DNA of 64,000 bases from Patescibacteria group bacterium (GTDB taxonomy: Bacteria; Patescibacteriota; UBA1384; XYA2-FULL-43-10; 1-14-0-10-43-13): NCBI GenBank assembly GCA_041666325.1, contig JBAYHC010000001.1:329708-393707 (forward strand), in the 5' to 3' direction. Each line of letters begins with the position of its first letter. The first letter of the stretch is position 1. Position numbers and translations under genes: made by a program. Positions 16,601-62,084 of the stretch are shown here, piece after piece. The notes under the pieces are model-generated. The model saw only the letters and a list, made by a program, of their open reading frames with translations. It ran no database searches and was not told the origin of the DNA.

Positions 16601-19600
16601 ATACTACCTACAAAACCATAGTTTGAACCATTGCGCGCGCCTATCTGCGCTGGAGCGGTTGAGGTGGTATCTGCAGCACTGAGCGCATCGATAACGGTTG
16701 TCAGCGTTTGCGATACACCATTGACGTATATTTTCACGCCAGAGACGCTCTCACTACCATCATACGTGGCTACGATGTGGTACCAAGTACTGTTTGATAA
16801 GGCGCTTTGCGTTGTAACACGCAAAAAGTTACCCGGCCAGCTACCTCCACCAATGGCAAAACTTAGCGTCCTGTTTGTCCCGTCTGCGCCCAAACTGTAT
16901 CCCTTTAGTGTCGCTTCTAGGTATTTATCAAAGAGCATTTCGTAATTTGTAGCCCAGTTTGATGAATTTGCCCACATATTGATACTAAAAGAATCGCTCG
17001 CATTGAAGTTTAGAGCACTTGGATTTCCTGCGCTGATATATGCACTACCGTTAAATGCTTGACCACCGCCGATTACTCCGGTGGTTGCGGTTGCTCCTGT
17101 CACCACCCCAATTCCGCCATGCGAATCGGCGCGGGTGACAGCGCCGGCTCCGGCTGAGGATTCGTCCAAGCCCCAATACGATACCAGGCTAGCTTTCTCA
17201 GCTGAAGTCAACGAGCTGTATGCCTTGCCATTACCGGCATTATAAAGAACAGTTTTTTCATCCGCCGTCAGAGTCCGCCGCCAGAAACTTATTTCGTCAA
17301 TTTGACCATTCCAAGGGTAGGTTGTGCCAGAGTACTCATGCGAACCAATCGTAAAAGCGGAGGTGCCGCCAAAAACTCCGCTGGACCAGCTAGTCGTATT
17401 CACCGTCCCATTATTAACTTGAATATTGATAGTGTTGTTGGCAGCATCATGCCAGGCAACAATAAAATACCAGGTACTTAGCGATGGTGATCCCAAGTTA
17501 TCTGCGCTTGCATTAGCAGAAACAGCCGTTCCATTGCTCGAGACATAAAAGCGAAACCGATCACCACTCGTTGGTCCGTCGTACTCCAGGACCCACTCGT
17601 TTTGAGTGCGGTCGCCGCCATGCTGCCATTTACCGACAATTACCCCGGCTTCGGGTTTGCTAGCTAAATTAACCCAACCAGATACGGTAAAATCAATATC
17701 ACCAGTCCTTAGTGACGGATTATCCACTATCCGCAGATATTCATTATTGGCTGAAGCCAGATTCGCTGCATTGCTCACCTTGCCTGCTACAGACGGGGTC
17801 GTATTATTATCAGTCAAATTATTAGCATTGGTCAGGGTCGCATCCCGGACAGTATTACCGCTTGTCTCGTCGAGATTAAAGCGGCCAACCATGCCAGAGC
17901 TGACATCGCCAGGTGCGCTGTTAAGCGTTAAATTATTGAATGTACCGGCGCCGCTCGTAACATTGCCACCGGCGCCAGCTAAAGTAACTGTGCCTGATCG
18001 GGCAGTAAAGCTACCGCCGTTATTGTTCCAATTGCCAGCGACACTTAAGCTATAATTGCTTGCCGTAACGTCAAGTGTACCGGCAGTCAAAGTTAAATTG
18101 CCGCTAACAGTTGTATCGGCCGGCAAGTTAAATGTCCCACCAGAGCCGTTTATGGTTAGGTTTGGATAGGACCAATTCTTGATCGCCCGAGTGCCGGATG
18201 TTGCAACATAGGCAACCGTTGAACCGGAAGCCAGAGTTGTGGTCCCGTTGGTGATTGTCTCGTCTCCGGTCAAGCTGAAAGTTGCGCCGCTGCTAACCGT
18301 GAAAACACCGGCCGTCGTCAAGTTTCTGCCATTGATATTGAAGGTACCGGCAGAGACAGTGGCACTTCCGCTAACGTTGAAAACGCTGCCCAACTCGACG
18401 CCAGCCGTTGCGAATGTCGCCGGTGAGCTTTGGTTGTTGTATTCAGCCGTAATCCACTCGGCGGAAAGTGCCGTATTGGAAACACGCGTTTCATCAATGA
18501 AGCCATCAAAAGTGGTTCCGTAGGTACTGCGGAATTTAGCAGCCAAACCCAAAGTCCCAAACGGGCTGCTTGCCGCGCTCAAGGTATTGCCGGCAGCACC
18601 ATTGATGTAGAGTGTACTATTGCCGCCGCTTGTCACCATCGCCAAATGGTACCAGTTCCCCGCAGAGAGTGCCGTGGACGACCAATCGCTCCATGATCCA
18701 GCAGGAACATTCCAATATTGAATTTTTGAACTAGCAAATTGAGTTGTGAAACCACCGGCAGCGCCATCAGTGTTACTAATAATTCTATCGCCGTTGACAA
18801 TAGTGTCCGGATTTATCCACATCTCAATAGTTGAGGTAGTAATCGAGTAATTTTTGAGTGTCATGATATCATCAGTGCCATCATAGCTCGTTGCAGCACC
18901 AATCTTACCGCTTGCCCCAAAAGTTACACCGCCACCCTGTGTGCCGTCATTAGCGACAGAAGTGGAATCAACAGCATTCGTTGGCCCAGCATCCGCCAAG
19001 TGGTAGATTCCCAGGTAATTGCTAGTCCAGACACTATTTTTGCCATAGGCAGATGTAGCTGTCGGCTCTACCGCCCCTGAGTTACCGTAATACATATAGA
19101 GCGTATCATCAGTCGCATCCCCAGCATCTTTTGTTGGGGTAAATTTAACCCACGCAATCAGGGCACCTGATGCATATGATTCGATTTCCCGGGCCAATGG
19201 CGTACCCGCAGAATCAGTAAACCTAATATCGGTCCCAAGTGCATTGATGTTTGACAAGCTTGAGGCCGAGATCATGACTGGAAAGTTTGCGTATGTAGCC
19301 GACGGACTTGCGACATCTGGAAACTTGGTGTGATCAATCGTAATAACCCTGCGGTATTGCCAACTCGGGGTGCTGGTCTGAAGCTCGCCCGCACCCGAAT
19401 GTGCAAAGTTATTAAACGGCGTATAGCCCATCGCAAGAGTTTGTATGCCGCTAGTTTTTGTGAAATCTACTGTACCGGAGTTGTGAAGAAAAGTTCCATC
19501 TGTCTGGCTCCAGTTCCCTGCTGTTGAGAGAGTTCCGCTTGTCGATGTGAACACTCCACCCGATAAAGTAAAATTGCCACTATTGGTGATAGCCGAGTTT

Positions 19601-27807: not shown

Positions 27808-27884
27808 TGGTAGCAGGGGTGGGGATCGAACCCACGACCTTAGGTTTATGAATCCTATGCTCTGACCAACTGAGCTACCCTGCC
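27808..27884 (-). tRNA. tRNA with CAU anticodon, most likely elongator tRNA-Met
   Basis: 77-nt cloverleaf GGCAGGG..CCCTGCT-A-CCA, anticodon loop TTCATAA, elongator-Met-like D-arm TAGCTCAGTTGGTCAGAGCA; lacks the C4-G69/C5-G68 pairs seen in the 33044 tRNA. Confidence 0.8.
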
Positions 27885-28194: not shown

Positions 28195-28271
<77 letters not shown>

Positions 28272-33043: not shown

Positions 33044-33119
33044 GGGCCCGTAGCTCAGCGGTTAGAGCAGCCGGCTCATAACCGGTAGGTCGCTGGTTCG
33101 ATCCCAGCCGGGCCCACCA
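33044..33119 (+). tRNA. tRNA with CAU anticodon, probable tRNA-Ile2 (lysidine, TilS substrate)
   Basis: 76-nt cloverleaf GGGCCCG..CGGGCCC-A-CCA, loop CTCATAA; C4-G69 and C5-G68 pairs and a D-arm TAGCTCAGCGGTTAGAGCAG resembling E. coli tRNA-Ile2. Confidence 0.8.
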
Positions 33120-47160: not shown

Positions 47161-48921
47161 CTACTGCTTCTCAACTGTGAGCAATGCTTCCCCCACGTTG
47201 CCTGCCGCATCATACGCCTTTGCTTTTAGCGTATAACTACCGGGGCCGACATTCGAATAGTCCCAACGACGAAGAATAGCGTCTGCACTCTCCTCTGCGA
47301 CAAGTGAGTCATTGATATAAATTTCCACCTTAACAACAGCAACATTGTCGCTACCCTCAGCCTTGATGAGCAAATTACCGCTCGCCCAGTTATATGGATT
47401 CTCACTCGGCTTAGAAAAAGAAACGGAGGGCGATGTTGTGTCCGCAACACTAGTACTGGTCCCACCCGAGCTATCTGCTATCTGGGATACTCCCCCGGAC
47501 GAAGCGCTACTGTTGCTCGGTTGACCAGTCTGAACGATGTTTAGGCTGAATGATTTCTCTGACGAAACACCATCTGTGTCTATCGCCTTCGCCTTGAAGA
47601 CATATGTGCCGGAGACTAGGCCGCTAAGATCGACTGCAACCTCGTATGGATCAGCGATGTCCTCAAGCAAGACCGTATCGTCACGATAAAAGACAACTTT
47701 ACTGACCCCCCTGTCATCACTTGCGGCAACAACAAAATCGAACTGTTCCCCGAGAGTGCCTCCGTTTGTCGGTGATGTGATCTTAACACTTGGAGGAGAG
47801 TTTGATGGCTGGACTGGGGCAGAAGGCTCCGTATCCGACTGAAGACTGTCGACGATATTGTCCAGCCAGCTCTTCGTACCGGGACTCGAAGGCAGACCGA
47901 CGGTCGATTGCATCGCATGGTAATCATAGCCTGAATAAAAATAAGCGTAGTCTTCGGCAATAATCTCCGGCTCGCACGTCTCCCAGCCGGTCGAGCAATC
48001 AACTGTGGTCGCATCTTTGGAGAGGGGCCTCACGTTGTAATAGCTATCAGGAAATCGTGTCCCTGCCGCAAGGTCAGCGTCAACCCACTTGTGATAGAGA
48101 GTGTAATGATGTCCATACTCGTGAGCCAAGACTGCCTTCATATAGTCATCGAAGTAGGTGGAATCTTTGTAGTACGAAGAATTCAAGGTGATCCAACCGA
48201 AGGCAGAGGTGATATCGCCAGTAGAGGTCATCGTATACGATCCGTTGTACAGACCACTCCAACCCGTGTCGCCAGCATCGCGAACCGTAATTTCCTTAAG
48301 AGCACTGATCTCTCCGCTCCACTTGAGTGTATTGTTTAGATAGTCCTTTAGCAATTGCTCCAGGTCAGGATAGCGGCCTGTTTCATCGCTGAATTTAACA
48401 CCGTAGGGGTCGGTCTGACTACTGGTGATATCTGCAACGCGGTTGTACTCGCCCTGGCTAACATTACCCTCAGAAACAACCGTAGTCACAGTACCGTTCT
48501 CGTTCCTGACTACCTCTCCTGCAATCTTATTGGAAGACGTTTCTTGCTTGGGGGGGCTTTTGGCAATCTGTTTCTTGGCTTCGGGTTTAGGCTTGTCCTG
48601 AGATGGTGGTGGCGTTTCCTCTCCGGCAACAGAACCTGTCGTCGCGGCGGGTAGCACCGCATCCGCCTCTGACCCAGTTGCAACAATCGGAGCAAGATTG
48701 ACGCTCTGCAACCCTGAACCAGGATTGCCCCGGATCCAATCAACCGGATCAATACCGTGCTCAATAAAATAAGCTCCGACCAAGAGCCCGCCCGAAGAAG
48801 CGACTATCGCCAAAGACAAAATCGCCCTCTTGGTAAGAGGGCCTAACATCTGGCGAACTTTGCCAACAACCTTGGCCGGCAAAGACGCGAACCAAAAACG
48901 GTAATGCATATCGCCTTTCAT
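47161..48921 (-). CDS. Membrane-anchored putative zinc metallopeptidase (HEXXH) with C-terminal Ig-like domains
   Basis: N-terminal TM, AHEYGHHYTLYH HEXXH motif, C-terminal beta-sandwich repeats (..GTYVFKAKAIDTDGVSS..). Confidence 0.5.
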   Translation of the reverse strand: MKGDMHYRFWFASLPAKVVGKVRQMLGPLTKRAILSLAIVASSGGLLVGAYFIEHGIDPVDWIRGNPGSGLQSVNLAPIVATGSEADAVLPAATTGSVAGEETPPPSQDKPKPEAKKQIAKSPPKQETSSNKIAGEVVRNENGTVTTVVSEGNVSQGEYNRVADITSSQTDPYGVKFSDETGRYPDLEQLLKDYLNNTLKWSGEISALKEITVRDAGDTGWSGLYNGSYTMTSTGDITSAFGWITLNSSYYKDSTYFDDYMKAVLAHEYGHHYTLYHKWVDADLAAGTRFPDSYYNVRPLSKDATTVDCSTGWETCEPEIIAEDYAYFYSGYDYHAMQSTVGLPSSPGTKSWLDNIVDSLQSDTEPSAPVQPSNSPPSVKITSPTNGGTLGEQFDFVVAASDDRGVSKVVFYRDDTVLLEDIADPYEVAVDLSGLVSGTYVFKAKAIDTDGVSSEKSFSLNIVQTGQPSNSSASSGGVSQIADSSGGTSTSVADTTSPSVSFSKPSENPYNWASGNLLIKAEGSDNVAVVKVEIYINDSLVAEESADAILRRWDYSNVGPGSYTLKAKAYDAAGNVGEALLTVEKQ

Positions 48922-48977: not shown

Positions 48978-49547
48978 TTAGTAGTGAATAATTTGATTGG
49001 TGGTTAATCGTTGACCCGGATCCCATGACTCGGAACCATTGCCCCGTGTTGCAACCAAGCCTGTGAGTAGAAGCTCAAAGTTCGCTATCGTCCGACCACT
49101 GCTAGTGTACCATTCACCGCTGCAATAGCGCATGCCCCGACCATATTCCCATGGTTTAGGCATCGAGGGCAGATAGGCGCTTAGGGCAACACCGAGATTG
49201 CGCGGACCGCTAGTCCACTCGAAGTGCTCATCGTTTGGCGAAACAGTCGGAGTCCAGCTACTGTGCGCACATAGGCCAGATCCAGCGTGCGTGTATGTCG
49301 TAAAGTCATTATAAGGAGCATGAGCCAATGTCCCTGTGTAACCTTGCCCGACCGGATAACGTTTGTTGTCGGCCTTAAACATAACCAATCCGCCCGCAAC
49401 AGCCTCTAGGTCGGCAATTCCGCGCGCATCCTTTGATTTCTCCTGAGCACCGTTGAAGTTGACAACGGCAACAGTTGCCAAGATACTAATGATCACCGCA
49501 ACAACCATAAGCTCAATTATCGTGAAACCCTTTTTCATAATTGGCAT
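48978..49547 (-). CDS. Type IV pilin-like protein
   Basis: MPIMKKG|FTIIELMVVAVIISILA prepilin leader. Confidence 0.7.
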   Translation of the reverse strand: MPIMKKGFTIIELMVVAVIISILATVAVVNFNGAQEKSKDARGIADLEAVAGGLVMFKADNKRYPVGQGYTGTLAHAPYNDFTTYTHAGSGLCAHSSWTPTVSPNDEHFEWTSGPRNLGVALSAYLPSMPKPWEYGRGMRYCSGEWYTSSGRTIANFELLLTGLVATRGNGSESWDPGQRLTTNQIIHY

Positions 49548-49561
49548 CCATTTTTAGTTTG

Positions 49562-50113
49562 CTATAAACCAGTGCCTACGCGGTAATTCTTTTGCCATCC
49601 GGTCCTTGCCAGCTGATCGCAAACAGCACTATCGCTGGGATAGGTCTGCAAATCAGTATCGCTCGGTCTCTCCAATGTGGCGTAGAGAGAGTACTTGGCT
49701 GAATCAGTCTTGTATATGTAGCCACAAGCATCGCTGTCGCAGAGCGGATCCCTTTGAGCCGATGAAAGCACACCGGCCTCAATCAGGCCTTGGATAATCG
49801 ACTTATGATATGGATAGGTTGCGGCTCCTGGACCGCTATAGTTGAGCCAGCTAATATCTATCCCGCCCGAATCTTTTCCGCCCGTAGTTCCGATTTTGTA
49901 GCTGCCATTGTTGATCTTGTACATCTCAATAGCGGTCGAGATCTGCTTCAGGTCAGCCCTTCGCCTGGCGTCTCTGTTCCTTGCCTTGGCTTCACCGTAT
50001 TGAGCTACGGCCACCGTTGCCAAAACCCCAATAATGACAATTATGATCAGGAGCTCGATCAGAGTGAAGGCCTTCTTGTATCTCATATGTTTCATATGTT
50101 TATATCCCAGCAC
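49562..50113 (-). CDS. Type IV pilin-like protein
   Basis: ..RYKKA|FTLIELLIIIVIIGVLA leader (Ala at -1). Confidence 0.65.
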   Translation of the reverse strand: MLGYKHMKHMRYKKAFTLIELLIIIVIIGVLATVAVAQYGEAKARNRDARRRADLKQISTAIEMYKINNGSYKIGTTGGKDSGGIDISWLNYSGPGAATYPYHKSIIQGLIEAGVLSSAQRDPLCDSDACGYIYKTDSAKYSLYATLERPSDTDLQTYPSDSAVCDQLARTGWQKNYRVGTGL

Positions 50114-50594
50114 AAGAAATTGACTTGTCTGTTGTGGTTAAGATATTAATTCCCGGCTCTTGCGTTGGGTTGATATGACTGAAATTAGAAGTGAGTGGAT
50201 AGTAGTAGTAGAAGGTGGAGGCAGCGTCACTTTTGCGCATGGTTATACCTGATCCTGTCCAATAGGTAGACGCCAGAACACTTGATCCGCTGACATATCT
50301 GTCCGATTCATAGTCGTAGTGGCCACACGGCGGCTGTGGCATCGCGCTTGAACTCATATAAGCGCTCATCTCAGCAGGCAAAACACCACCAGCAACATCG
50401 TAAGGATATCTATCGCTAGTTGACTCATACATCCTGGCAGCCTTGGCAAGCACCTCCATATCACTCACAATCCTCGAGTAATTGGCCTTATCCTTGCTGC
50501 TATACATCGTGACCATAACAATAGTCGCTAAAACCATGATAATGAGAACCACTACCAACATTTCAATGAGAGTAAACGCCCTTCTCTCCCTCAC
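50100..50594 (-). CDS. Type IV pilin-like protein (GTG start)
   Basis: (M)RERRA|FTLIEMLVVVLIIMVLA leader; AAAGGAGG RBS. Confidence 0.65.
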   Translation of the reverse strand: MRERRAFTLIEMLVVVLIIMVLATIVMVTMYSSKDKANYSRIVSDMEVLAKAARMYESTSDRYPYDVAGGVLPAEMSAYMSSSAMPQPPCGHYDYESDRYVSGSSVLASTYWTGSGITMRKSDAASTFYYYYPLTSNFSHINPTQEPGINILTTTDKSISCAGI

Positions 50595-50759: not shown

Positions 50760-52856
50760 CTACAACCTGGTCTCAATCCGCTTGAGAAGAACCGCGTTGG
50801 TCGCAACAATGATCGATGAAGCCGACATGAGCAGAGCCGAGATCTCGGGCCGAAGGATTATTCCGTATGAAGTATAGAAAACTCCAGCAGCGACGGGAAT
50901 CGCGAGAATGTTGTAGATCGAAGCCCAAAACAGGTTTTGTTTCATCTTACCAACAGTCGCCCGGCTTAGCTTCAGGGCCCGAACAATATCATATGGATCT
51001 GATTTCATGAGCACGATATTGCCCGTCTCGATCGCCACATCGGTACCGGCACCGATAGCAATACCAATATCAGCTTGCGCCAAAGCAGGAGCGTCATTAA
51101 TACCATCGCCAACCATAGCCACAAACTCTCCCTCTTGTTGAAGTTTCTTTACATAATTTGCCTTATCTTGAGGCAAAACCTCAGCAAACACTCGATCGAT
51201 TGCCAGCTCTTCTCCGATTGCTTCGGCAGTTTGCTTATTGTCGCCCGTAATCATTGTCACGAAAATACCCAGCTTTTTTAATTCAGAAATTGTCTTTTTG
51301 GCGTTTGATCTGACGATATCGGCAGCCCCGAGCACACCGGTAACATGTCCATTGATGGCCAAGAGCATCAATGTTTTGCCTTCACCAAGCAACTTCTCGA
51401 TCTCATCTTGCAAGGGAGTAATATCAATTTTTCTATCGTTCATCAATTTGATTGTTCCGACAAGAACCTGGTCTCCTTCGACGGTCGCTTCAATACCTAG
51501 TCCGGACAGAGAAACAAAGTTCTCAATTTTCTTAGAGTAAGAAATAGACCTCTTCTCCGCTTCGTCGATGACTGCTTGGCTTAAAGGGTGGCCGGACCTT
51601 GATTCCGCTGCTGCCGCCAAACGAACTACGTCATCCGGCTTGAACCCCTTGGCGGTCACGACATCGGTGACCTTCGGCTTTCCCTCAGTTAAGGTGCCAG
51701 TTTTATCCAGGACAATGGCAGTAATTTTGGAGGTATTTTCGAGTGTCGCTGCATCCTTGATTAAAACGTTGTGCTTGGCACCAATGCCCGTACCAACGGC
51801 AATCGCCGTTGGTGTTGCCAGTCCCAAAGCATCCGGACAGGCAATCACAATCGCGGAAACGGCAAAAGTTAAAGCAGAGATCAGCGTTGCACCGGCAATG
51901 ACGTACCAGCTAAAGAAGGTCGCCACGCCAGCAACAATTGCGAGCACCACTAGCCAGGCAGCAGCACGATCAGCAATCCTCTGTCCTGGCGCCTTTGAAT
52001 TCTGCGCAATCTCGACCAACTTAATAATTTGGGCCAAGACAGTATTAGAACCAACTTGCGTCGCCTTAAATTCGACTGAGCCAGTCTGGTTGACTGAACC
52101 ACCGATAACTTTATCACCAGCAATCTTTTCCACCGGAATCGACTCACCTGTGACTAAAGATTCATCAACCGAACTTTTGCCCCCAACGATTTCTCCGTCC
52201 ACTGGCACTTTGTCACCCGGCCTTAGGACAACTATGTCGCCCTCGACGATCTCGGCACTTGGAATTGAAACTTCTTTACCGCTCCGAAGAACAGTTGCCT
52301 GAGGCGGGACCAGATCAAAAAGAGTGCGCAAAGCATCTGACGTGCCGCGACGGGAGCGCACCTCCATCCAGTGACCAAACAGGACAAAGGTTACCAAGAG
52401 AGCGGCAGCCTCGTAAAAAGTCTCACCTCCAACAGTTAGGGTTATGAGAACGCTAAACAGAAAAGCGGCGAGGACCCCAGTGGCTATCAGAACAGACATG
52501 TCTAGCTTTTTGCTCTTTAGAGAATGATAGGCACCGACCACAAAGATAGATCCGGCCCAAAAGACAACCGGCGTTGTCAAAATTAGCAAAATCCAATTGA
52601 CAGGAATTGGTGCTGGCAGGTCAATTCTGAAAATATTTGCCCCTACTGGCGAATAGAGAAAAATCGGAATTGAAAGTATAAGGGAAAGCCAAAAACGGCG
52701 GCGCATATCCGCCTCCATCTCTTTAGCCATCTGCGGATTAGTCATGGCTGCTTCGTGGTCCGCGTGAGACATTTTCGACATGTCGTGGTTCATGTGGTCG
52801 CTCTGCTCCATAGTACCCATCTCGTGCCGGGAGCGATCATTCAAATCGTGATTCAT
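50760..52856 (-). CDS. P1B-type heavy-metal (copper) ATPase with a His/Met-rich N-terminus and a CPD TM6 motif
   Basis: [21 protein letters not shown]7 N..YN..P and TM8 MSASS (Cu-type), TM6 IACPD (not CPC), N-terminal [25 protein letters not shown]. Confidence 0.85.
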
Positions 52857-52920
52857 GATAAATCTCCTCCAGCAAACAGGTGTATACCCTTGTTGTCAAA
52901 ACGTAATAATACCCATATCG

Positions 52921-53748
52921 TCAATTGGCAGGACGATGCTTCATTGTACACGCTTCTTCGTGCCGTCCTTTTTCTTCGCGAACTAGTTTGCCGTCCTCAA
53001 TGTAAAGCACCCGATGGGCAACGTCTTTGATCCGCTCATCGTGGCTGACGATGATGACAGTTTTTTGCTGCTCGCAGCCGATCGAACAAAAAAGATTCAT
53101 CACCTCATGACCGATTTTTGAATCGAGATTAGCCGTCGGCTCATCGGCCAGAATTATTTTAGGATCATTCACAAGCGCTCGAGCGATTGAAACCCGCTGT
53201 TTTTCACCACCAGAGAGATCGCGCGGCAAATTGTCCAAACGTCTACCAAGGCCTAGCTTCTCCAGGGCAGCTTTTGCCTTCTTGAATGCCTCCCGTTTGT
53301 TAGTTCCGGCAGCAATCAATGGCACGGCGACGTTCTCGAGCGCAGTGAGCGAAGAAAGTAAGTTGAATGACTGAAAAACGAAACCAAGATTCTTAAGCCT
53401 GAACGCCGGCAAATCCCGCTCCGACATCTGAGTCAAATTGATTGCTTTCTCAATTGTCATTCCAGGCTTGACCTGGAATCCAGGATTTTTATTGATGGAT
53501 CCCTGAATCGAGTTCAGGACAGGCTCTGAATCAAGTTCAGGATGACAATTGAATGTAATCTCGCCAACCGATGGCTTGAGTAGTGCTCCGATCATCGTCA
53601 AAAATGTTGTCTTCCCACTGCCACTCGGCCCCATCACCAAAACAATCTCGCTCTCGTTGATTTCTAGCGAAATATCATCCACTGCCTTCACTTGCGTGTG
53701 GCCGGAACCGTAAACTTTTGATAAATTTTTGATTTCTAATATGCTCAT
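52921..53748 (-). CDS. ABC transporter ATP-binding protein
   Basis: Walker [18 protein letters not shown], Walker [12 protein letters not shown]. Confidence 0.8.
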
Positions 53749-54860
53749 GATTTAAACACCTCTGCCGGATCGATCGAGAAGATCCGTTTCATCGGGATAT
53801 AAGCAGCAATTAATGACATCAAAATAGTGGCGGCAAAGATCCAAACCAGATCAACTGGACGGATGACGGTCACAAAGGAGGAGACGATGTTTTCAGAGAC
53901 ATAGGCGACGCCGTATGACAAAATCATACCGATAATGTAGCCGATGACGCCGGCAATAAGTGATTGGATGATAACTGTTTTAAAGAGTTGGCCGTTCGAG
54001 AGACCGATCGCTTTCATCACCCCATACTCGCGTGACTTTTCGATCGTGGCCGAATAAGTTGTGAGGCCAATTACGGCGATTCCGATAATCAGACCAATGA
54101 CAACCAGAACAGAGATGATCGGCAAGAAACTCTCCGTCACCACCTTGCGCGAGTTCTCGACGAATTCATCCTTCGTGAGAACTTTAACGCCCGTGACCTG
54201 CTTTTCGATATCGGACTTAACTTCTGATGCATCAGCGCCTGACTCCAAGCCGAGCAGGTAAAAGTTGACCTTCTCACCCAGACCAAATGACTTTTTCGCC
54301 TGATCATAGGTCACATAGGCATATTGGAAGGAAATGACGTTGCCACCACTTGAAATCCCACCGACCGTAACACTTTCCCCATTGATATCAAAAACATCGC
54401 CAACCTTCAGATTTTCCTCTTTGGCCATTACTCTATCGATGATAATTTCGCCATCTTTCAGATCCTGCCAGCTACCCTCTTCCATCTCATAAGGCTTGGT
54501 TGCCCCGCTCTCGGGATCAACACCGACGATAAATAATGTCTGGTCCTTGCCATTGAGGTCGAACATGACCTGCCGGCCGAGATATTTATCCACCCTACCC
54601 ACACCATCAACTGATAAGAATTTTGAATCCAAATTATTCGGCAAAAACGAGAGCGTGTGGTACATATCACCCACACCCTCTTGCTCAACCCAAAGATCAG
54701 CCGGAATGCTCTTGGGGTACGCCCCCATCTTTTCATTAAAACCCTGGTAGAGACCGTTGATTATAATGATTAAGAGCACAGCAAAAGCAACGCCGCCGAC
54801 GCTGATCGCCAACTTCACTCTTTCCTGAAACAGGTTTTTGAGAGCTATAAAAAACAACAA
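53745..54860 (-). CDS. FtsX-like ABC transporter permease (MacB/YtrF type)
   Basis: N-terminal TM, large extracytoplasmic domain, 3 C-terminal TMs; 4-nt overlap with the ATPase gene. Confidence 0.75.
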   Translation of the reverse strand: MLFFIALKNLFQERVKLAISVGGVAFAVLLIIIINGLYQGFNEKMGAYPKSIPADLWVEQEGVGDMYHTLSFLPNNLDSKFLSVDGVGRVDKYLGRQVMFDLNGKDQTLFIVGVDPESGATKPYEMEEGSWQDLKDGEIIIDRVMAKEENLKVGDVFDINGESVTVGGISSGGNVISFQYAYVTYDQAKKSFGLGEKVNFYLLGLESGADASEVKSDIEKQVTGVKVLTKDEFVENSRKVVTESFLPIISVLVVIGLIIGIAVIGLTTYSATIEKSREYGVMKAIGLSNGQLFKTVIIQSLIAGVIGYIIGMILSYGVAYVSENIVSSFVTVIRPVDLVWIFAATILMSLIAAYIPMKRIFSIDPAEVFKS

Positions 54861-54877
54861 CCCTCCTCGACCATGCT

Positions 54878-55009
54878 ACTATTTGTTGATGTATTTCCAG
54901 AGCGCAACAATACCCAAAACGAGCAAAGCAACGAATAAAATATAGGTAATCCAAGCAAAAAACATCATGCTCGATCCCCCTGCCCCGCCCATCATATTGT
55001 AATCCATCA
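54878..55009 (-). CDS. Unannotated 43-aa Met-rich single-TM peptide (MMDYNMMGGAGGSSMMFFAWITYILFVALLVLGIVALWKYINK)
   Basis: ATG at 55009 with GGAGG 4 nt upstream; Met-rich N-terminus then one TM helix; lies in the gap between the Cu ATPase and FtsX genes. Confidence 0.4.
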
Positions 55010-55119
55010 TTCTACCTCCCCTGCTTAGTATTTATACTATAATATCACGACAATACTCATTATGATAACAAAAATAACAGTGATTCAACCAAAGAGACTA
55101 CTGGAGCGCTAGAATCAGC

Positions 55120-58100
55120 TCATTGTTTAAGAGTAAAATTCATGCCCACAAAGTGCATTATGTCGAGAGTGGTTTTTGTTTCTGGGAGAATCCCGGCCAC
55201 AATCACTCTGTTGCCAAAGAAATCATCCAAGGTGTCGCCCTCCTCCAAAAACAGATTCTCGTCTATCATCATCTTGGCCTCGCGACTGCCAATAAATACA
55301 GGCAGATAGCTCTTGTTTCCGATTATCACTGGCCCATTGTAATTGGAAATTTCGCCCTGCAGCTTTTGTGGCACACCACCAGAAAGATCATAGAAGACCT
55401 TAACACTGCCCTCGGCCAAGGCCATGTTTAGGTCGACACCCCTCTGGAGACTGCGATATGTGCTCTTGTTCGCAAAATGATAGTTGTCAAGAATTGTTCC
55501 GGTCGGCTCCAGCACGCCAGCAACCCTCATCGCAGGCACGCCAAAGAAGTTCTGGATAGTGTCGCCGGGTTTTGCAAAAAGATTTTCATCTCTCATCATT
55601 TGGGCTTCTTCGGCACCAATAATCATCTCATTATCGGCCAAAGCGAGTTTTCCCTCCTTGACCTTAACACCTTTGGCGATATTGAGATTATCAACACCAG
55701 CGAAGAGCTTCGGGCTGCCCTCATTAAACAATATTTTGTTCTCCTGATCTGCAATAAAGGCATTCGCCTCTTTTTGAGCAGAACGAGAGAGCGTGGTCTT
55801 GACCGCTCCGCTCTCGCCGGACATGTCGGAACTTATTTGGGCAAATTCAAAGAATATACCAGTAAACAGAATGACCATGACGAGTGGCGCGAACAAAGAT
55901 ATCAAATTTCTCTTGTTGGGCCGGAAGTACTTGAGGAGAAGAGAGTTTGACACAACCGAAATTGAACTTAGGGCCATAGCCAGACCGGCTAGTTCGGGCT
56001 TCAAGATTAAGCCAGCCCCAACAAAAATTCGGGCAGCAATAGGAATACCAATAACATTATAGAATAGGGCAAAGAACATGTTCTGCTTAATCTTGCTCAT
56101 TGTCTCCTTGGACAGAGCAATTGCACTAACTACATCATTAAGATCGTTCCGGATGATAACAATGCCGCCAGTCTCCATGGCCACATCAGTGCCGGAACCC
56201 ATGGCAATACCGAGATCCGCCTGTGCTAAAGCAGGGGCATCATTAATACCGTCCCCAACCATAGCGACCACTTTGCCGGAACTTTGTAGATTCTTGACTT
56301 CGGCCGCCTTGTTTTCGGGCAAGACCTCGGCCAAAACATTTGTGATTCCAACTTGCGAAGCAATTGCGTTGGCTGTTCGCTGGTTGTCGCCGGTAATCAT
56401 AAAGACGGTAATACCCATGGCTTGCAGCTTGGCGACAGCATCCTTTGATGTTTCCTTAACCGTATCGGCAACAGCAATGACACCGACAATTTTCTCTTTT
56501 GTCGCCAAGATCATAGCCGTCTTGCCCTGCTCTTCCAGACGCTCAAGCTTCCTGTTAATTTTGTCGACAGGCAAATTCAATATATCAACCATCAAGCGGC
56601 GGTTACCAAAGTAATATTTTGTATGATTTAGCTCACCTTCAACCCCGTGGCCGGGGATTGCTTTGAATTTTTCAACCTCCTCGAGTTCAAGCGCCTCTTC
56701 GTCGGCATAAGTGTAAATTGCTTCGGCCAAGGGATGCTCTGATGATTTCTCGAGGCTGGCGGCAATTGCCAAAACCTCGTCTTCGTCGGCATCGCTCAGA
56801 GTCAAAATATCAGTCACGACCGGTTTGCCGTGTGTCAATGTTCCTGTTTTGTCAAAGACAACCGTGTTGACCTTGCAAGCTTTTTCGAGCGGCTCGCCGC
56901 CCTTAACCAAAATACCATGCTCAGCGCCTTTCCCAGTACCGACCATAATGGCGGTTGGTGTTGCTAACCCTAAGGCACATGGGCAAGCGATCACAATCAC
57001 GGCAGTAAAGGCCATGAGCGCAAAAGATAATGATGAACCCAATACAAAGTACCAGACAATAAATGTAAGGATCGCCAAACCAATAACGATAGGCACAAAA
57101 TAGGCCGAGATCCGGTCAGCAAAAGCCTGAATTGGCGCCTTGGAACCCTGGGCTTCCTCGATCAAGCGGATAATTTGGGCCAATGTTGTTTCCGCACCAA
57201 CACGCGTCGCTTCGAACTCGAATGAACCGGTTTTATTGATTGTTGCGCCAACAACACCATCACCAACGTTCTTCTCGACAGGCAAACTCTCACCTGTAAC
57301 CATAGATTCATCAACTGCCGATGAACCCTTGATGATCTTGCCATCAACCGGAATTTTCTCGCCCGGCCGAACCAGAATGATGTCGCCAGTTACCACCTCG
57401 TCAATCGGAATATCAGTAGTAACACCATTACGAATAACTCTGGCAGTTTTAGCCTGTAAGCCCATTAATTTTTTGATTGCTTCAGAAGTCTGGCCTTTAG
57501 CTCTCATCTCAAGCCATTTACCCAGAATAACAAAGGTGATCAGAAAAGCAGCCGTTTCAAAGTAGAGTTCTGGAATCTTTTCTCCGCCCACCCCAAGCAG
57601 CGTCCCGCTCTTAGTTACAAAACTAAAGAAATTGGCCAAACTGTAGAGATATGCCGTTGAAGTACCGATCGCGATCAGGCTGTCCATGTTAAAAGTCTTC
57701 ATTCGGAGACTTGACATCATCCCTTTATAAAATCCGGCTCCGGCAATAAACTGAACGGGGGTCGAGAGAATAAGTGAAACGATGCCAAAATATGGCGGCA
57801 AACTCTCCGCTCCTGGCAGCCACTTGAAGAAATCAAGCAACATAAAGTAGAGCATTGGAAAGCTTAAGATAAAACTAAACCGAAAGCGCTTCCAAAGCGA
57901 GCCGATCTCTTTCTTTCTCTTTTCGGCCTCATGCTCCGTACTGCCGGCGTCTATCTCCTCTGCTTTGTAACCGGCTTTTTTAACCGCCTTGATCAGACTT
58001 GCTCCCGTTGCAGCTCCGCTATCATATGAGATGATAGCTTTTTCAGCAGCAAAGTTGACATTGGCCGATTTAACACCAGGAACTTTCTTGATCGAGCGTT

Positions 58101-58749
58101 CGATAATGGCGGCGCAAGAAGAACAGTGCATGCCATAGAGGGACAGGGAGATGATCTTGCTAGACGCACCTCTATTGTCAGCACCGGTGGCAGGCACCGA
58201 AACGCTTTGCTGCGCTAAATCATTATCCAGCGCAGAAGCTGAAGCGCCCTCGTTCGTGTTGCCCTCAATCTTTTGACTCCCAAAGGAGTTCAGGAGTCTA
58301 GCAAGGTCAGACGGCTTGGCCATTCCCGCAGCCTCAATCTTAGCCGAAAACTTGACCTTGAGCGGCTGATCAGGAAGAACAAGTTCATCTCTGACTGTGA
58401 TGGTATCGTTATTGACTGAAACAGTGCGAGCAGTATTGGTTTTAGACAGCTCAAAATTATCGCTGTTTGTAATTTTGGCTTCATACCCACTATTTTTAAC
58501 TGCAGCAACAATTTGCTCAGGCAAGGCCTTACGTAGATCAATCTCCAATTCACCAGTGCCTTTTTCGCTTGATATTTTGATGTTTTTAGCCCCGGGCAAC
58601 TTTTCTAGCCCTGCGGCAATTATTTTTTCGCATGATCCACAGTGCATTCCGTCGATCTTGAGTTCAACTTTGGTCATAATATGCGTCCTTGCTTGTTCTG
58701 AATGTTTAATTGTCTTGTTCCCATCTGGAATATTCAGTGCAGCGATCAC
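55120..58749 (-). CDS. copA: Copper-translocating P1B-1 ATPase CopA with two N-terminal HMA domains and a roughly 300-aa C-terminal extension (extra TM plus a tandemly duplicated domain)
   Basis: GMHCGSC and GMHCSSC HMA motifs, CPC in TM6, [15 protein letters not shown]; after TM8 an extra hydrophobic helix ([21 protein letters not shown]) and two homologous ~110-aa units (..[22 protein letters not shown].. / ..[22 protein letters not shown]..). Confidence 0.85.
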
Positions 58750-58955
58750 TCTTCGGCAAGCGGGTGATCTGTTCCCCTCAGTGCATCAGCAATTTCATAA
58801 AGATCGATTTCCCTCTCTGCCTCAACACTTACAGACCCATTGAGGTTAACCACGGCGTCAGTTACGCCGTCAATCTCACGTAATTTCATGCTGACCAATT
58901 TGGTGCAGGCCGCACACTCAAAGCTGCCCACAAGAGAGAAGTTTAACGTCGACAT
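58746..58955 (-). CDS. copZ: CopZ-like heavy-metal-associated copper chaperone
   Basis: 69 aa, ferredoxin-like HMA fold with ECAAC (CxxC) metal-binding loop; 4-nt overlap with copA. Confidence 0.6.
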
Positions 58956-58975
58956 CGGTTCCTTTCGTTATTTTC

Positions 58976-59000
58976 TACCTACACCTAGGGTATAGGTAGA
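58976..59000. promoter_or_regulatory. Pseudo-palindromic operator candidate (CTACCTACACCTAGGGTATAGGTAG) overlapping a TTGACA-N15-TATACC promoter upstream of copZ
   Basis: Inverted repeat CTACCTA..TAGGTAG around ACCTAGGGTAT; resembles CsoR operator pseudo-palindromes; -35 TTGACA at about 59016-59021 on the minus strand. Confidence 0.4.
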
Positions 59001-59043
59001 CATGGAGTTTGTCAATACCTTTGAGGGTAAGAAAATGTTGTTG

Positions 59044-61005
59044 CTAGACCACTGTTAGTGTCCCACGCGGGACGCCCATTGCACAGGTGATATCGTAATT
59101 GCCCTTCTTGGTCGGAGTAAAATTAAATGTAATTGTTTTGCCCTGCTCCAAAAGTTCGGGTTCGTCCACTAAACCCGGGATCATGATAGTACTCATACAT
59201 CCCACCCCGTCAACCTCGGCCGCAACCTCGAATCGAACCGGCTGATTGGCCTTGACAGTAAATTCATTCGGATAAATATCACTGTATTGAGACAAAGTTG
59301 ACTCAGAGAAAGAGGTTTTCACGACCTGTATCTTGTCAGTGCTTGGAGCGGAATCAGACTCAGCCAAAGGTTTGGGCTGTGTACTAGAAGCAGGTTCTGT
59401 CTTGTTCTGTTGAGTCGAATTAGGCTTCGCAGCACCTGTCTCTGACTTGGATTGATCTTGCCCCGAGTCAGTTTGAACAGGCGTTTGACTTTGGGTGATA
59501 GAGGGTAGGTCTGATTTTTGTCGGGACGAATCGGTATCAGCGGGCAGAGAAGCACTCTTGTCGTCAACCACCTTGAAGCTTCCGCGGTACATGCCCATGG
59601 AACAAGAAAACTTAAAAGTGCCGGCTTCTCTTGGTGTAAACTCGATAATGTTTTCGCCGGGTTTCAGGGTCTTTCTGATCGCGAACTTAGAAAACGATAT
59701 GCTAGCGGCACAGGTTTGACTGTCCACGGAATTGATAACCCACTTAACCGGCACACCTTTATTCACAGTGAAGCTATTTGGCGAGTAACCGTCCGCATCC
59801 TGGGTCATGTTGACAACCTGGACACCATTCTCGTTCTTCGCCGTCGAATCACTACTACTACCGCCTGAACCAGCAGAACTGCCAAGAGAGGGCAACTTCC
59901 ACCCCGTTAAATTCCACCCGTTGGCGAGGTTAAAAAACGCCAGGGCAACGACCAAGAGGCCGGCGAACTTAAAGAATCTTTTAGCAAAGGCTCCCTGGAT
60001 TACAGATGTTAGACCGCCAATACCCAAGAGGCCCGGGGCCGTTCCAAGGGCAAAAACTCCCATTATCGCCGCCCCTGACCAAAAACTACCCGTGCTCATA
60101 GCATACAACTGCATGGCCTGAGTAAAACCGCACGGCAGGAAAAATGTTAAGGCTCCGGTAATCAATGAGTTGGTGTGGCTATATTCCTTTTGATGGCGCC
60201 CGCTCAGCCCGAAAAATCGACTGATGCTTGAGGGCAAGGTTAAGCCGCTGCTAGACAAGCGCGGAAATATCTCTGTCAACTGAGCACCGAGCGCAAGCAT
60301 CACCAGACCAACGGCAATGGTAAGAAAACCAAGTGTTGGGCTGGAAAGCTGAAAAGCCTTGCCGGCCAAACCGATCACCCCGCCCAAAACGAAATATGAG
60401 ATGGTGCGGCCCAAAACGAAGAAAATATGGGGGCGAAATTTTTGAGCAGGAGTCGCCTCGGGGTGCTTTTCTGAAAACCTGGCAGATATACCCAGGACCA
60501 AGCCGCCCACCAACGCCATACAAGTAGAAATTCCAGCTGTTAGACCGACCACAAGCACAACTGCCAGACTTGACGGCTTATCACCGCCGCCAACATTGAT
60601 ATTACTAAGTCCGAGCTGCCTGGCGACAAAGTAAAGCAGCAACAAAACAACAAAAGCATATGCTAAATCGCGATACTTGGCTGGATCGCGGCTTATCCAA
60701 TCCTTCGAGTCATCAACTCCAACTTCATAGCCAGCCTCTCTGACTGCTGCCCTGACCTCACTCATATCGAGCGATCCGCGAGTATATATCTCAGCCTGAC
60801 TCTTCTTGTAGCTAACGTGGACATTTTTGACGGCAGCAATCTCTTCAAGTTTCTCAGTGATCAAAATTTCGCATGACCGGCAATGCATTCCCCTGATCGG
60901 AACAGTGACCTTGCCAGCCTGACTTGAAGCATCTCTGTTGCCCAAAAAATCATCAACCATCCCTGATTTACTTGAACTGAATTTGTTTTTCTTTTTTGAT
61001 GACAT
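59044..61005 (-). CDS. Three-module fusion: N-terminal HMA domain, polytopic membrane domain with conserved Cys, and two C-terminal cupredoxin-like beta-sandwich domains bearing Cys/Met pairs
   Basis: GMHCRSCE (MxCxxC) HMA; about 8 TM with Cys in ISTCMALV and FLPCGFTQ; C-terminal repeats ..TCAAS..FSCSMGMYRG.. and ..GCMS..ITCAMGVPRG.. Confidence 0.6.
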   Translation of the reverse strand: MSSKKKNKFSSSKSGMVDDFLGNRDASSQAGKVTVPIRGMHCRSCEILITEKLEEIAAVKNVHVSYKKSQAEIYTRGSLDMSEVRAAVREAGYEVGVDDSKDWISRDPAKYRDLAYAFVVLLLLYFVARQLGLSNINVGGGDKPSSLAVVLVVGLTAGISTCMALVGGLVLGISARFSEKHPEATPAQKFRPHIFFVLGRTISYFVLGGVIGLAGKAFQLSSPTLGFLTIAVGLVMLALGAQLTEIFPRLSSSGLTLPSSISRFFGLSGRHQKEYSHTNSLITGALTFFLPCGFTQAMQLYAMSTGSFWSGAAIMGVFALGTAPGLLGIGGLTSVIQGAFAKRFFKFAGLLVVALAFFNLANGWNLTGWKLPSLGSSAGSGGSSSDSTAKNENGVQVVNMTQDADGYSPNSFTVNKGVPVKWVINSVDSQTCAASISFSKFAIRKTLKPGENIIEFTPREAGTFKFSCSMGMYRGSFKVVDDKSASLPADTDSSRQKSDLPSITQSQTPVQTDSGQDQSKSETGAAKPNSTQQNKTEPASSTQPKPLAESDSAPSTDKIQVVKTSFSESTLSQYSDIYPNEFTVKANQPVRFEVAAEVDGVGCMSTIMIPGLVDEPELLEQGKTITFNFTPTKKGNYDITCAMGVPRGTLTVV

Positions 61006-61023
61006 GATCTCCCCAATGACTAC

Positions 61024-61380
61024 TTACTTGTTTGAAAGTCTTCCGACTCTTAGTATCTCTGTGATCATTTTCTGTTTTCGCTCCTCGTTATTGGTTTTCA
61101 TGGCATTTTTGAAACAGGTATCGAGGTGCCCTTCCAATAATTGTTGGTTGGCGGATTTCAGGAGGCCCATGACCGCCATGTTCTGCTGCATAATATCGAT
61201 ACAATACTCGCCGTCTTCCAACATCTTTAATATTTTATCGATATGGCTTCTTGCCTTCTTGAGGTTGATAACAGTCTTCTCGTGTTTTTTGTCCATCTTC
61301 TTCCTTGTAATATTTGTACACCTACCTATGGTAGAGGTGTTTATAGATCCAATGATAACATGCGAAGAAAATTCGGTCAA
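61024..61380 (-). CDS. csoR: CsoR-family copper-sensing transcriptional repressor
   Basis: C-x(24)-H-x(3)-C pattern (GEYCIDI..EGHLDTC) of the CsoR Cu(I) site; probable true start is the Met at 61296 (91 aa), which puts the operator at 61316-61340 in the promoter. Confidence 0.7.
   Translation of the reverse strand: MTEFSSHVIIGSINTSTIGRCTNITRKKMDKKHEKTVINLKKARSHIDKILKMLEDGEYCIDIMQQNMAVMGLLKSANQQLLEGHLDTCFKNAMKTNNEERKQKMITEILRVGRLSNK
61316..61340. promoter_or_regulatory. Pseudo-palindrome TACACCTACCTATGGTAGAGGTGT downstream of a TTGACC-17-TATCAT promoter; likely csoR autoregulatory operator
   Basis: Shares CACCTA/TAGGTG-type half-sites with the site at 58976-59000; the promoter (minus strand) is TTGACC 61377-61372, TATCAT 61354-61349. 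Confidence 0.4.
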
Positions 61381-61460: not shown

Positions 61461-62084
61461 ATGAAATTCGACCCGGTACCATACATCATCGGAGTTGTGG
61501 CCATAGTTATAGCTGCAATTATTATTGTATTTGCCGGAAAGAGTGACAACACCGGGTCAGCAAATACTCAGCAGATCGCCGAAAAAGAAAAGGGCGGCGA
61601 ACCAATAATTGCCACAGACGAGACAACTTTTCTTCTAACTCCGAAAGAAAAAATTAAGCAAAAGACAATCAAAGTAGCCAATAACGGCAGTGGCGCACTC
61701 GTTTTGTCAGCATTTGAGACTTCGTGTAAATGTGTTACGGGCCAGTTTAGCAAAGCATCCGAAGACGGGCCGGATTTCTTTGGGCGCAACAAAATCAACT
61801 GGTCGATTGCCCTGCCCCCAGATGAAGAGGGCCTGCTTTCGATCAGGTTTGACGAAAAAACATTCAACTGGACTCGGCCCAGCGACCAATTCGTAACATT
61901 CAAAACGAATGACCCCAACAACCCCGAAATAAAAGTTAGCTTTTTGACTGATCCAGAAAAAGTAAGGCAACAAACAGAAACGAGTGAAAGCGGAGACACG
62001 GCTGTTACCCCAAACATGCTTGAGCAGCTTAAAGAAAGCGGGGCCCTTGATCAAGAAAACGGTACTACTTGGCCCGAAGAGTAA
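61461..62084 (+). CDS. DUF1573-like membrane-anchored protein
   Basis: N-terminal TM; NNGSGALVLSAFETSCKCV matches the DUF1573 N.G...L.I.....SC.C signature. Confidence 0.5.
   Translation: MKFDPVPYIIGVVAIVIAAIIIVFAGKSDNTGSANTQQIAEKEKGGEPIIATDETTFLLTPKEKIKQKTIKVANNGSGALVLSAFETSCKCVTGQFSKASEDGPDFFGRNKINWSIALPPDEEGLLSIRFDEKTFNWTRPSDQFVTFKTNDPNNPEIKVSFLTDPEKVRQQTETSESGDTAVTPNMLEQLKESGALDQENGTTWPEE

Follow-up and report, generated by a model that had tools for sequence, protein, structure and literature searches.

How copper is moved across the cytoplasmic membrane is well understood; to our knowledge, the fate of Cu(I) after it leaves the pump is understood only for Gram-negative bacteria (CusF, CusCBA). 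Bacteria of the candidate phyla radiation (CPR), and probably DPANN-like archaea too, are tiny, surface-attached cells that lack an outer membrane, and what might become of the exported metal in such a cell is the question raised by a gene cluster at positions 50760-61380 of the window, by which we mean the whole 64,000-nucleotide stretch of a Patescibacteria contig (JBAYHC010000001.1) that was analyzed. Judged from its sequence, this island is a coherent, probably CsoR-controlled copper-export cluster of a reduced-genome member of the Patescibacteria and is unlike the standard csoR-copZ-copA operon. Copper detoxification is in itself an unsurprising function, and the system belongs to the csoR-copZ-copA kind of efflux system; its four departures are a nine-helix CopA with an outer domain, CupA-type domains that are predicted to face outward, a module made up of a MacB-type ATP-binding cassette (ABC) transporter, a Met-rich peptide and a CPD-motif pump and, probably, a DUF1573 gene.

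The island consists of eight co-directional open reading frames (ORFs) on the minus strand with intergenic gaps of at most 109 nt, in the order csoR, a fusion of HMA, DsbD_2 and two cupredoxin domains, copZ, copA, a gene for a 43-aa Met-rich peptide, ftsX, an ABC ATPase gene (abc) and the gene for a P1B ATPase with a CPD motif. Terminator-like sites are lacking in the gaps among the eight genes. Families were assigned by Pfam and NCBIfam profile scans of the window's proteins with the model cutoffs applied, and the ORFs together with strong matches confirmed the positions and strand of all eight genes, which had been proposed in a sequence-only reading of this DNA. Its more particular predictions were also borne out, namely the domain composition of the fusion (HMA, DsbD_2 and, in two stretches, Cupredoxin_1 were all matched), an unusual C-terminal extension of CopA (a ninth helix plus ∼235 residues), the Met-rich peptide (with a strong ribosome-binding site and homologues in related loci), the CPD motif and His/Met-rich N-terminus of the second ATPase, and two operator candidates, which are palindromes located before csoR and before copZ. 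The position of the island stood as well, with two adjustments: csoR most likely starts at ATG 61296 rather than at 61380, and CopA most likely at ATG 58677, because its homologues align from residue 21-30 onward. The CsoR protein aligns with that of Mycobacterium tuberculosis (2HH7; E 2e-13), YCIDIM...GHLDTC being matched to YCVDVM...NHLETC, and retains the Cys-His-Cys triad of Cu(I) ligands (C36, H61, and C65 in M. tuberculosis), by which it is recognizable as a Cu(I)-sensing repressor.

The most distinctive component is CopA itself. The protein has the features of a P1B-1 Cu(I) ATPase, including two N-terminal HMA domains, an E1-E2_ATPase match (E 2e-63), CPC at aa 589, DKTGT at aa 633, GDGIND, YN(x)4P (YNVIGIP), and MALSS, and departs from the P1B-1 plan of eight helices and a cytoplasmic C-terminus by a ninth transmembrane (TM) helix and a domain of 235 aa, an architecture that is conserved in 41 loci. 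A basic loop (KYFRPNKRN) precedes the ninth helix and an acidic segment follows it, and the helix is predicted to place the C-terminus outside the cell. The extension is an internal duplication, with 52% identity between its two repeats across 52 residues (E 7e-16); neither it nor the 43-aa peptide nor the His/Met-rich N-terminus of the CPD pump had a match above threshold in Pfam or NCBIfam. Each repeat contains the patterns G-x2-E-A-x2-M and D-x2-H (M1052, D1088, and H1091 in repeat 1; M1161, D1196, and H1199 in repeat 2), and the Met, Asp, and His residues are at least 80% conserved in both repeats, in fused and free-standing forms of the domain alike. Outside the cytoplasm, copper is typically bound by Met, His, and Asp, and for this reason a role as a tethered acceptor or release module for exported Cu(I), analogous to that of CusF, is favored for the extension. 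The likeness to the hand-off from CopA to CusF in Escherichia coli is one of function only, with no relation of sequence or fold, and the proposed acceptor of the island and its relatives is tethered to the pump or encoded next door (the ligands of CusF are described in PMC7558416).

An AlphaFold2 model of the extension, built on a 22-sequence alignment, reached a pLDDT of 87, and in hhalign comparisons residues 60-159 of the extension are collinear with the periplasmic domain of the neighboring FtsX family (four-sequence profile; probability 10%, E 0.003), the probability against the single FtsX sequence being 1%. With a similarity this remote, the possibility that the extension is a recent copy of the adjacent ftsX gene was rejected. 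It is concluded from these sequence and model comparisons that the extension probably derives, remotely and in part, from the periplasmic domain found in type VII ABC transporters and does not belong to PF12704. It differs from the periplasmic core domains (PCDs) of MacB, LolC/E, YknZ, YbbP, and HrtB in scoring below the Pfam threshold and in its internal duplication, unseen in PCDs; unlike them, it is carried by a P-type ATPase, the protein ends at aa 1209 with no FtsX domain after it, and it has no ABC partner of its own. The extension appears to be undescribed.

A species-level scan with the extension profile (one genome per GTDB species) identified 41 loci, nearly all labeled CPR (Berkelbacteria, Falkowbacteria, Peregrinibacteria, Microgenomates, Parcubacteria, and others). 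In every one of them CopA reads in frame into the extension, which is 35-59% identical, the bottom and top of this range deriving from one divergent and two partial matches. A search of 5.8 billion proteins added 21 homologues, all on short contigs, and in these metagenomic fragments the ATPase C-terminus is continuous into the extension wherever the sequence reaches far enough upstream. Only 288 members were detected in an exhaustive profile search of 1.84 billion representatives. Free-standing proteins of ∼260 aa that comprise a TM anchor and the same duplicated domain account for about 46 of the best 150. In all four contexts examined, the free-standing homologues adjoin Cu-ATPase genes, within 40 bp of copA or copZ-copA (23 bp after copA, 10 bp after copA, 38 bp before copA, and directly upstream of copZ-copA), in clusters that also carry HMA, HMA-DsbD_2, Cupredoxin_1, and FtrD-like genes. 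These four contigs are probably archaeal because the neighboring genes encode a class I lysyl-tRNA synthetase, DUF7343, and HTH_45 proteins, although these assignments are to Pfam families only. Fusion to the pump in one lineage and a position beside copA in another argue strongly, in the manner of a Rosetta-stone pairing, that the domain works with the pump. Two homologues are unusual in other respects. P0035, a 1125-aa CopA with the extension, has W wherever G is conserved (WDWIND for GDGIND) and probably comes from an organism that reads UGA as Gly (code 25), conceptually translated with the wrong table, which would mean that Gracilibacteria/Absconditabacteria carry the fusion too. P0052, a partial CopA with the extension, carries behind it one more C-terminal domain, ∼260 aa long, in which His-rich motifs occur (HEHPEW, HTHPM); this would be a putative second metal-binding domain stacked on the outer side.

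When the 41 loci were searched by tblastn with the island proteins, (csoR)-fusion-copZ-CopA emerged as the usual layout across most of them, with the fusion upstream of copZ-copA. The HMA-DsbD_2-cupredoxin fusion is not rare; its family is large, and at least 120 homologues of full length contain all three Pfam domains and are named "sulfite exporter TauE/SafE family protein" at NCBI. Its cupredoxin domains match pneumococcal CupA (4F2E/2MRY; phmmer E 8e-13) and the metal-binding domain of pneumococcal CopA (4F2F; E 4e-12). In the 120 homologues the Cys plus C-x-M-x-M ligands of the first domain (C432, C468, M470, and M472) are invariant, as are the CxxC of the HMA domain and the membrane cysteines C162 and C292, and the residues C603, M604, C641, and M643 of the second cupredoxin domain are kept at 99%; from this pattern both are identified as CupA-type Cu(I) domains. 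The positive-inside rule fits seven TM helices with the HMA domain inside and the CupA-like domains outside, and free-standing relatives in related loci have basic, signal-anchor-type N-termini. They are homologous to the cupredoxins of Streptococcus pneumoniae CupA and the CopA N-terminus and have the Cys and C-x-M-x-M pattern in common with them, but differ in being fused behind a seven-TM HMA-DsbD_2 protein and in their predicted orientation; pneumococcal CupA is a membrane-anchored chaperone that faces the cytoplasm and has been reported from only a few streptococci (PMC7558416). Membrane proteins of the HMA-DsbD_2 type (COG2836) have been inferred to be members of the CsoR regulon in Firmicutes (PMC4938975). 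The HMA match of the copZ product is marginal, with FECAAC replacing the usual M/G-M-x-CxxC context; copZ homologues occupy the same position in many related loci. Small secreted Cys-rich proteins with an LPCC motif are encoded between csoR and the fusion in L003 (4766-5200) and five similar loci.

Control by CsoR is suggested by the two palindromes. A generic CsoR box (TACCCNNNNGGGTA, up to two mismatches) showed no enrichment in the window (13 matches against 14 expected) and was rejected as a criterion; one of its matches pointed to the copZ site. A more specific core, TACCNTAGGTR, was derived from the two window sites and then validated on independent loci. It has two exact occurrences in the 64-kb window, both of which are the operator candidates in cop promoters, and nine, spread over eight loci, in a set of 52 independent related loci (766 kb), compared with 2.6 ± 1.8 in shuffles. 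All nine lie within an extended palindrome, TACCTATACC-ATA-GGTATAGGTA, and eight of them precede csoR, copZ, or copA by no more than about 150 bp, the ninth (L013) being ∼300 bp upstream of a cupredoxin gene; the two-site arrangement of L049 is identical to that of the window. The palindromes before csoR and copZ are read as the CsoR operators of this lineage, which would differ from those of the csoR-copZ-copA operons of Bacillus subtilis, M. tuberculosis and other Firmicutes and Actinobacteria in being longer, nested palindromes. The island has in common with those operons a Cys-His-Cys CsoR, TACC/GGTA-type palindromes, an HMA chaperone and a CPC-type P1B-1 ATPase with N-terminal HMA domains, and is unlike them also in its nine-helix CopA with an outward domain, its HMA-DsbD_2-CupA-like fusion and its second module.

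This second module begins with the 43-aa membrane peptide, whose basic C-terminus, KYINK, leads to the prediction that the Met-rich N-terminus faces outward. Peptide homologues with 48-67% identity were detected in six related loci (L002, L049, L050, L051, L052, and L053), although their position within the module shifts, and L048 and L054 have, instead of the peptide, a SHOCT protein whose N-terminal membrane segment is similar. Membrane-anchored proteins of ∼105 aa that consist mostly of MMxxG/K repeats occur in the FtsX-ABC-CPD clusters of L048 (6000-6317) and L050 (7602-7931), and no counterpart of them was detected in the window. The abc gene overlaps ftsX by 4 nt. Its product has an insert of ∼40 aa (aa ∼58-100) between Walker A and the Q-loop, which is present also in L048 (270 aa) and lacking in L049 and L050 (235 and 239 aa). 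In L048 three ORFs (7641-9024), among them a GIY-YIG nuclease gene, separate ftsX from abc, probably a mobile element that has split the transporter operon. No gene for a membrane-fusion (HlyD-type) adaptor was found in or beside the island, as expected for organisms that lack an outer membrane. Type VII ABC transporters such as MacB, LolCDE, and HrtBA work on substrates located on the outer side of the membrane, which makes it plausible that the FtsX-ABC pair clears copper, or a copper-loaded peptide, from that side. The set of peptide, FtsX, and ABC genes beside P1B ATPases is not part of textbook copper operons and appears to be undescribed.

The linkage of this transporter to copper pumps recurs in seven related contigs, where FtsX is 70-78% identical and stands beside P1B ATPases. 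In the three loci retrieved by means of the CPD ATPase (L048, L049, and L050; 73-84% identity), FtsX-ABC is directly upstream of the CPD pump and a cop operon lies less than 10 kb away. Loci retrieved by FtsX alone (70-76% identity), which provide an unbiased test of the linkage to P1B pumps, have FtsX-ABC directly after CopA (L052 and L053) or inside a cop cluster (L054). The CPD pump resembles CopB (P1B-3) ATPases in its His-rich N-terminus without an HMA domain (nt 52701-52856, His/Met-rich), in YN(x)4P (YNILAIP, YN at aa 648) and in the MSxS(S/T) of the last helix (MSASS at aa 677), and is unlike them in having CPD (aa 340) for CPH and MSASS for MSxST. CPD is found in all 120 of the closest homologues (at least 69% identity, mostly from Patescibacteria), and therefore represents a trait of the subfamily rather than an oddity of this genome; a recognizable MSxSS is present in all but one, many homologues add an N-terminal PF19335 metal-binding domain, and the orthologues in the more distant loci L001, L012, and L026 keep CPD. 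A CPD variant of CopB has been noted bioinformatically in three ATPases from Rhizobiales (PMC5552934), and pumps of the CopB type now count as exporters of Cu(I), with P1B-3 merged into P1B-1 (PMC7558416). Literature searches that covered P1B pumps with CPD, copper systems of Patescibacteria, DsbD_2/Cupredoxin_1 fusions, C-terminal or extracellular domains of P1B ATPases, and CsoR together with FtsX found no functional study of a CPD pump, nor any account of the CopA extension, the function of the fusion, a copper-linked FtsX transporter, or the layout as a whole; nothing pertinent emerged beyond the Rhizobiales CPD variant and the place of COG2836 in the CsoR regulon. The module carries promoter-like hexamers of its own, and between these and the ribosome-binding site of the peptide gene lies an AT-rich palindrome (AGTATAAATACT, 55030-55050, minus strand) that could be the site of a different regulator.

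The sequence-only reading had singled out four items as non-canonical, and these fared differently: the CopA extension and the embedded ABC exporter are indeed atypical, and conserved, whereas the fusion and the CPD motif turned out to be common, with at least 120 homologues and 120 of 120 sequences, respectively. Its broader view of a coherent but atypical system held, since domain searches and synteny matched neither the extension nor the ABC pair to a well-characterized cop component.

Features of the copper island and its divergent neighbor (window positions; bit scores are given with the model cutoff where available)
Feature	Position	Strand	Description and evidence
DUF1573 protein	61461-62084	+	Membrane anchor and Ig-like domain with S-C-x-C; Pfam DUF1573 E 2e-5, 24.9 bits (cutoff 26.1)
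csoR promoter, sigma-70-like	61352-61380	-	TTGACC-17-TATCAT; consensus match only
Operator candidate 1	61318-61340	-	Palindrome ACACCTCTACC-ATA-GGTAGGTGT, between promoter and csoR ATG
csoR	61024-61296	-	90 aa from ATG 61296; PF02583 E 9e-18, 64.8 bits (cutoff 22.8)
Membrane fusion, 653 aa	59044-61005	-	HMA E 2e-11; DsbD_2 E 8e-32; Cupredoxin_1 E 4e-23 in two stretches
Fusion, HMA domain	60724-60906	-	Pfam; predicted cytoplasmic
Fusion, DsbD_2 core	59908-60669	-	PF13386, 111 bits (cutoff 24.9); within seven predicted TM helices
Fusion, CupA-type cupredoxin domains	59578-59841 and 59047-59328	-	Pfam; predicted outward-facing
Operator candidate 2	58975-58999	-	Palindrome CTACCTATACC-CTA-GGTGTAGGTAG; overlaps promoter-like TTGACA-17-TACCCT; in 88-nt gap before copZ
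copZ-like HMA chaperone, 69 aa	58746-58955	-	PF00403, 26.5 bits (cutoff 24.8); CAAC motif
CopA, P1B-1 Cu(I) ATPase, 1209 aa	55120-58677 (ORF to GTG 58749)	-	TIGR01511, 637 bits (cutoff 397)
CopA, ninth TM helix, aa 947-974	55828-55911	-	Hydropathy 2.55
CopA, predicted extracytoplasmic C-terminal domain, aa 975-1209	55123-55827	-	Repeat 1, 55468-55641; repeat 2, 55144-55314
Membrane peptide, 43 aa	54879-55010	-	Met/Gly-rich N-terminus, one TM helix, basic C-terminus KYINK; strong ribosome-binding site GGGGAGG
FtsX/MacB-type (type VII) permease	53745-54860	-	PF02687 E 4e-17, 62.8 bits; PF12704 (MacB_PCD) E 1e-14, 55.4 bits; both above cutoff
ABC ATPase, DevA/LolD/MacB type	52921-53748	-	ABC_tran E 4e-31, 108.9 bits; TIGR02982 E 2e-65, below cutoff
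CPD P1B ATPase, CopB-like, 698 aa	50760-52856	-	TIGR01511, 576 bits (cutoff 397); E1-E2_ATPase E 2e-56

The DUF1573 gene is divergent from csoR, and the operator-bearing intergenic region is common to both genes. Its homologues are present in eight cop loci, immediately after copA in L048, L050, and L054, and the gene is probably an additional member of the island beyond the 50760-61380 range. A CcdA-like membrane protein is often encoded next after the DUF1573 homologues. Related cop loci also encode DUF2933 proteins with the motif CPLMHxxMMKGMH (L048 4631-4888, L050 4539-4754, L002 8415-8702, L049 11276-11470, and L052 1626-1760). Immediately downstream of the CPD ATPase in the window are three genes in a row that carry type IV pilin-like N-terminal methylation motifs (48978-50594, minus strand), followed by a gene for a 586-aa Big_7 Ig-domain protein at 47161-48921; elsewhere among the neighboring genes are an anaerobic ribonucleotide reductase gene and a single ORF of 5188 aa (4633-20199, minus strand), giant ORFs of this sort being common in CPR genomes. 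The type IV pilin-like genes, the anaerobic ribonucleotide reductase, and the 5188-aa ORF fit the assignment to Patescibacteria. The window also contains three tRNA-Met (CAT) genes within 5.3 kb (27808-27884, 28195-28271, and 33044-33119) and a tRNA-Lys gene (219-293).

Taken together, we consider it probable that the locus is a CsoR-regulated Cu(I)-efflux island of two linked modules with added outer-face copper-handling parts. The first module would be the standard cop operon of the lineage, formed by csoR, the HMA-DsbD_2-CupA-like fusion, copZ, and CopA. A rise in cytoplasmic Cu(I) would release CsoR from the two operators before csoR and before copZ, and CopZ together with the HMA domains would pass Cu(I) to CopA for export. 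The ninth helix would display the duplicated module, which resembles the MacB periplasmic domain, on the outside, where it may accept or release the exported Cu(I). The fusion would join a cytoplasmic HMA site, via its two-cysteine membrane core, to two outward CupA-type Cys2Met sites, and might serve to relay Cu(I) or, alternatively, to conduct reductant in the manner of CcdA so that the CupA-type thiols stay reduced. The second module (Met-rich peptide, FtsX, ABC, and CPD ATPase) would supply a second, CopB-like pump, and its MacB-type transporter and outward Met-rich peptide may clear copper from the outer membrane face. Gene content, family membership, the conservation of the fusion, of the gene neighborhoods and of the operator motif, and the predicted fold come directly from the analyses; what we infer in this scheme is the membrane topology, the binding of copper by the extension and any part of the ABC transporter in copper handling. 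A wider proposal, which we put forward tentatively and think doubtful as it stands, is that the extension and its free-standing homologues beside copA in ultra-small, probably archaeal lineages form a new class of extracytoplasmic Cu(I)-ATPase partner that was recruited from type VII ABC transporters, namely from their periplasmic domain, and that with the CupA-type domains and the ABC/peptide module would constitute outer-face copper clearance in cells that have neither a periplasm nor an outer-membrane efflux route.

Several observations weigh against the two-module copper island. The motif scan of the window found no CsoR-type operator before the peptide-FtsX-ABC-CPD module, neither the 41 loci with the extension nor the distant CPD-ATPase loci L001, L012, and L026 contain FtsX/ABC, and the copper link of the transporter is drawn from gene neighborhood within one clade. 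The outward orientation of the CupA-type domains, predicted from the positive-inside rule only, is opposite to that of pneumococcal CupA. The lack of an operator and the absence from the 41 loci would suit an ordinary cop operon beside which peptide, FtsX, and ABC form an unrelated system for peptide or bacteriocin export, immunity or resistance to antimicrobial peptides; a MacB-type ABC pair with a small adjacent peptide gene is typical of bacteriocin and immunity systems, and the ABC protein also matches the lactococcin-972-type model TIGR03608 (E 2e-50), below cutoff. Yet the retrieval by FtsX alone led again to CopA or a cop cluster, that by the CPD ATPase placed FtsX-ABC directly upstream of the pump in three of three loci, and the linkage is kept though gene order varies; moreover, the N-terminus of the peptide is Met-rich and further Met-rich anchored proteins occur in the same clusters, so that an unrelated export system seems unlikely. 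About equally unlikely is a multi-metal island in which the CPD ATPase moves another divalent metal, as might be supposed since the invariant CPD alters the transmembrane metal ligand of CPC/CPH pumps by setting the harder Asp in place of the His of CPH, and since the literature searched contained no characterized CPD-type pump. The protein nevertheless passes the cutoff of the copper-ATPase model (576 bits against 397), has YN(x)4P and MSxSS like Cu pumps and a His/Met-rich N-terminus, and is always encoded in or near cop clusters.

With regard to the extension, the closest relatives (L048-L050 and L052) keep the ninth helix without the domain, which indicates that it is dispensable. Its relationship to the MacB class is also faint: MacB_PCD (PF12704) scores 23.5 bits against a cutoff of 27, a single member of the 22 in the family (that of the window) reaches E 0.01, and Foldseek ranks the MacB-PCD class first but weakly, at E about 0.02 and TM-scores of 0.2-0.3. 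Its dispensability would suit a reading in which the extension is an envelope, surface, or regulatory module, such as a mechanical gate or a protein contact point, that was inherited from a type VII ABC permease and does not handle copper, the more so as its only detectable relatives, the MacB/LolC-type periplasmic domains, are mechanotransmission devices and not metal binders, and as many of its conserved residues are Gly, Ala, and Thr, probably structural. Without exception, however, the contexts seen have the domain either fused to a Cu-ATPase (41 loci) or encoded next to one (four of four free-standing cases), each repeat of both forms holds the Met and the Asp-x2-His, and P0052 adds a further His-rich outer domain, and we regard a module without a part in copper handling as improbable, if somewhat less so than the alternatives for the second module. 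That the extension instead reflects a frameshift or misassembly by which the 5′ portion of a decayed FtsX-like gene came to follow CopA might be suspected from its resemblance to the first TM helix and periplasmic domain of FtsX and from the complete ftsX gene just downstream. The recurrence of this in-frame junction, at 35-59% identity, among 41 independent genomes and 21 metagenomic fragments, the only remote similarity to the neighboring FtsX, and the free-standing versions without an FtsX membrane domain leave such an artifact with almost no credibility, and the comparative data effectively refute it.

For a specialist in copper homeostasis, the unexpected elements of the island would be a pump accessory domain that exists in both fused and split forms and the association with a type VII ABC transporter. 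The island, so read, suggests a different solution to the exit of Cu(I) from that of Gram-negative bacteria, in which a repurposed ABC outer domain is tethered to the pump, CupA-type Cu(I) sites are displayed outside and, possibly, a MacB-type mechanotransmission transporter and Met-rich peptides are coupled to a second pump. If true, this would establish a new family of P1B ATPase accessory domains, place the widespread CPD subtype of pump in a physiological setting for the first time, assign to a type VII ABC transporter its first metal-related role apart from the export of heme, and give a defined CsoR operator to a lineage that has no genetics.

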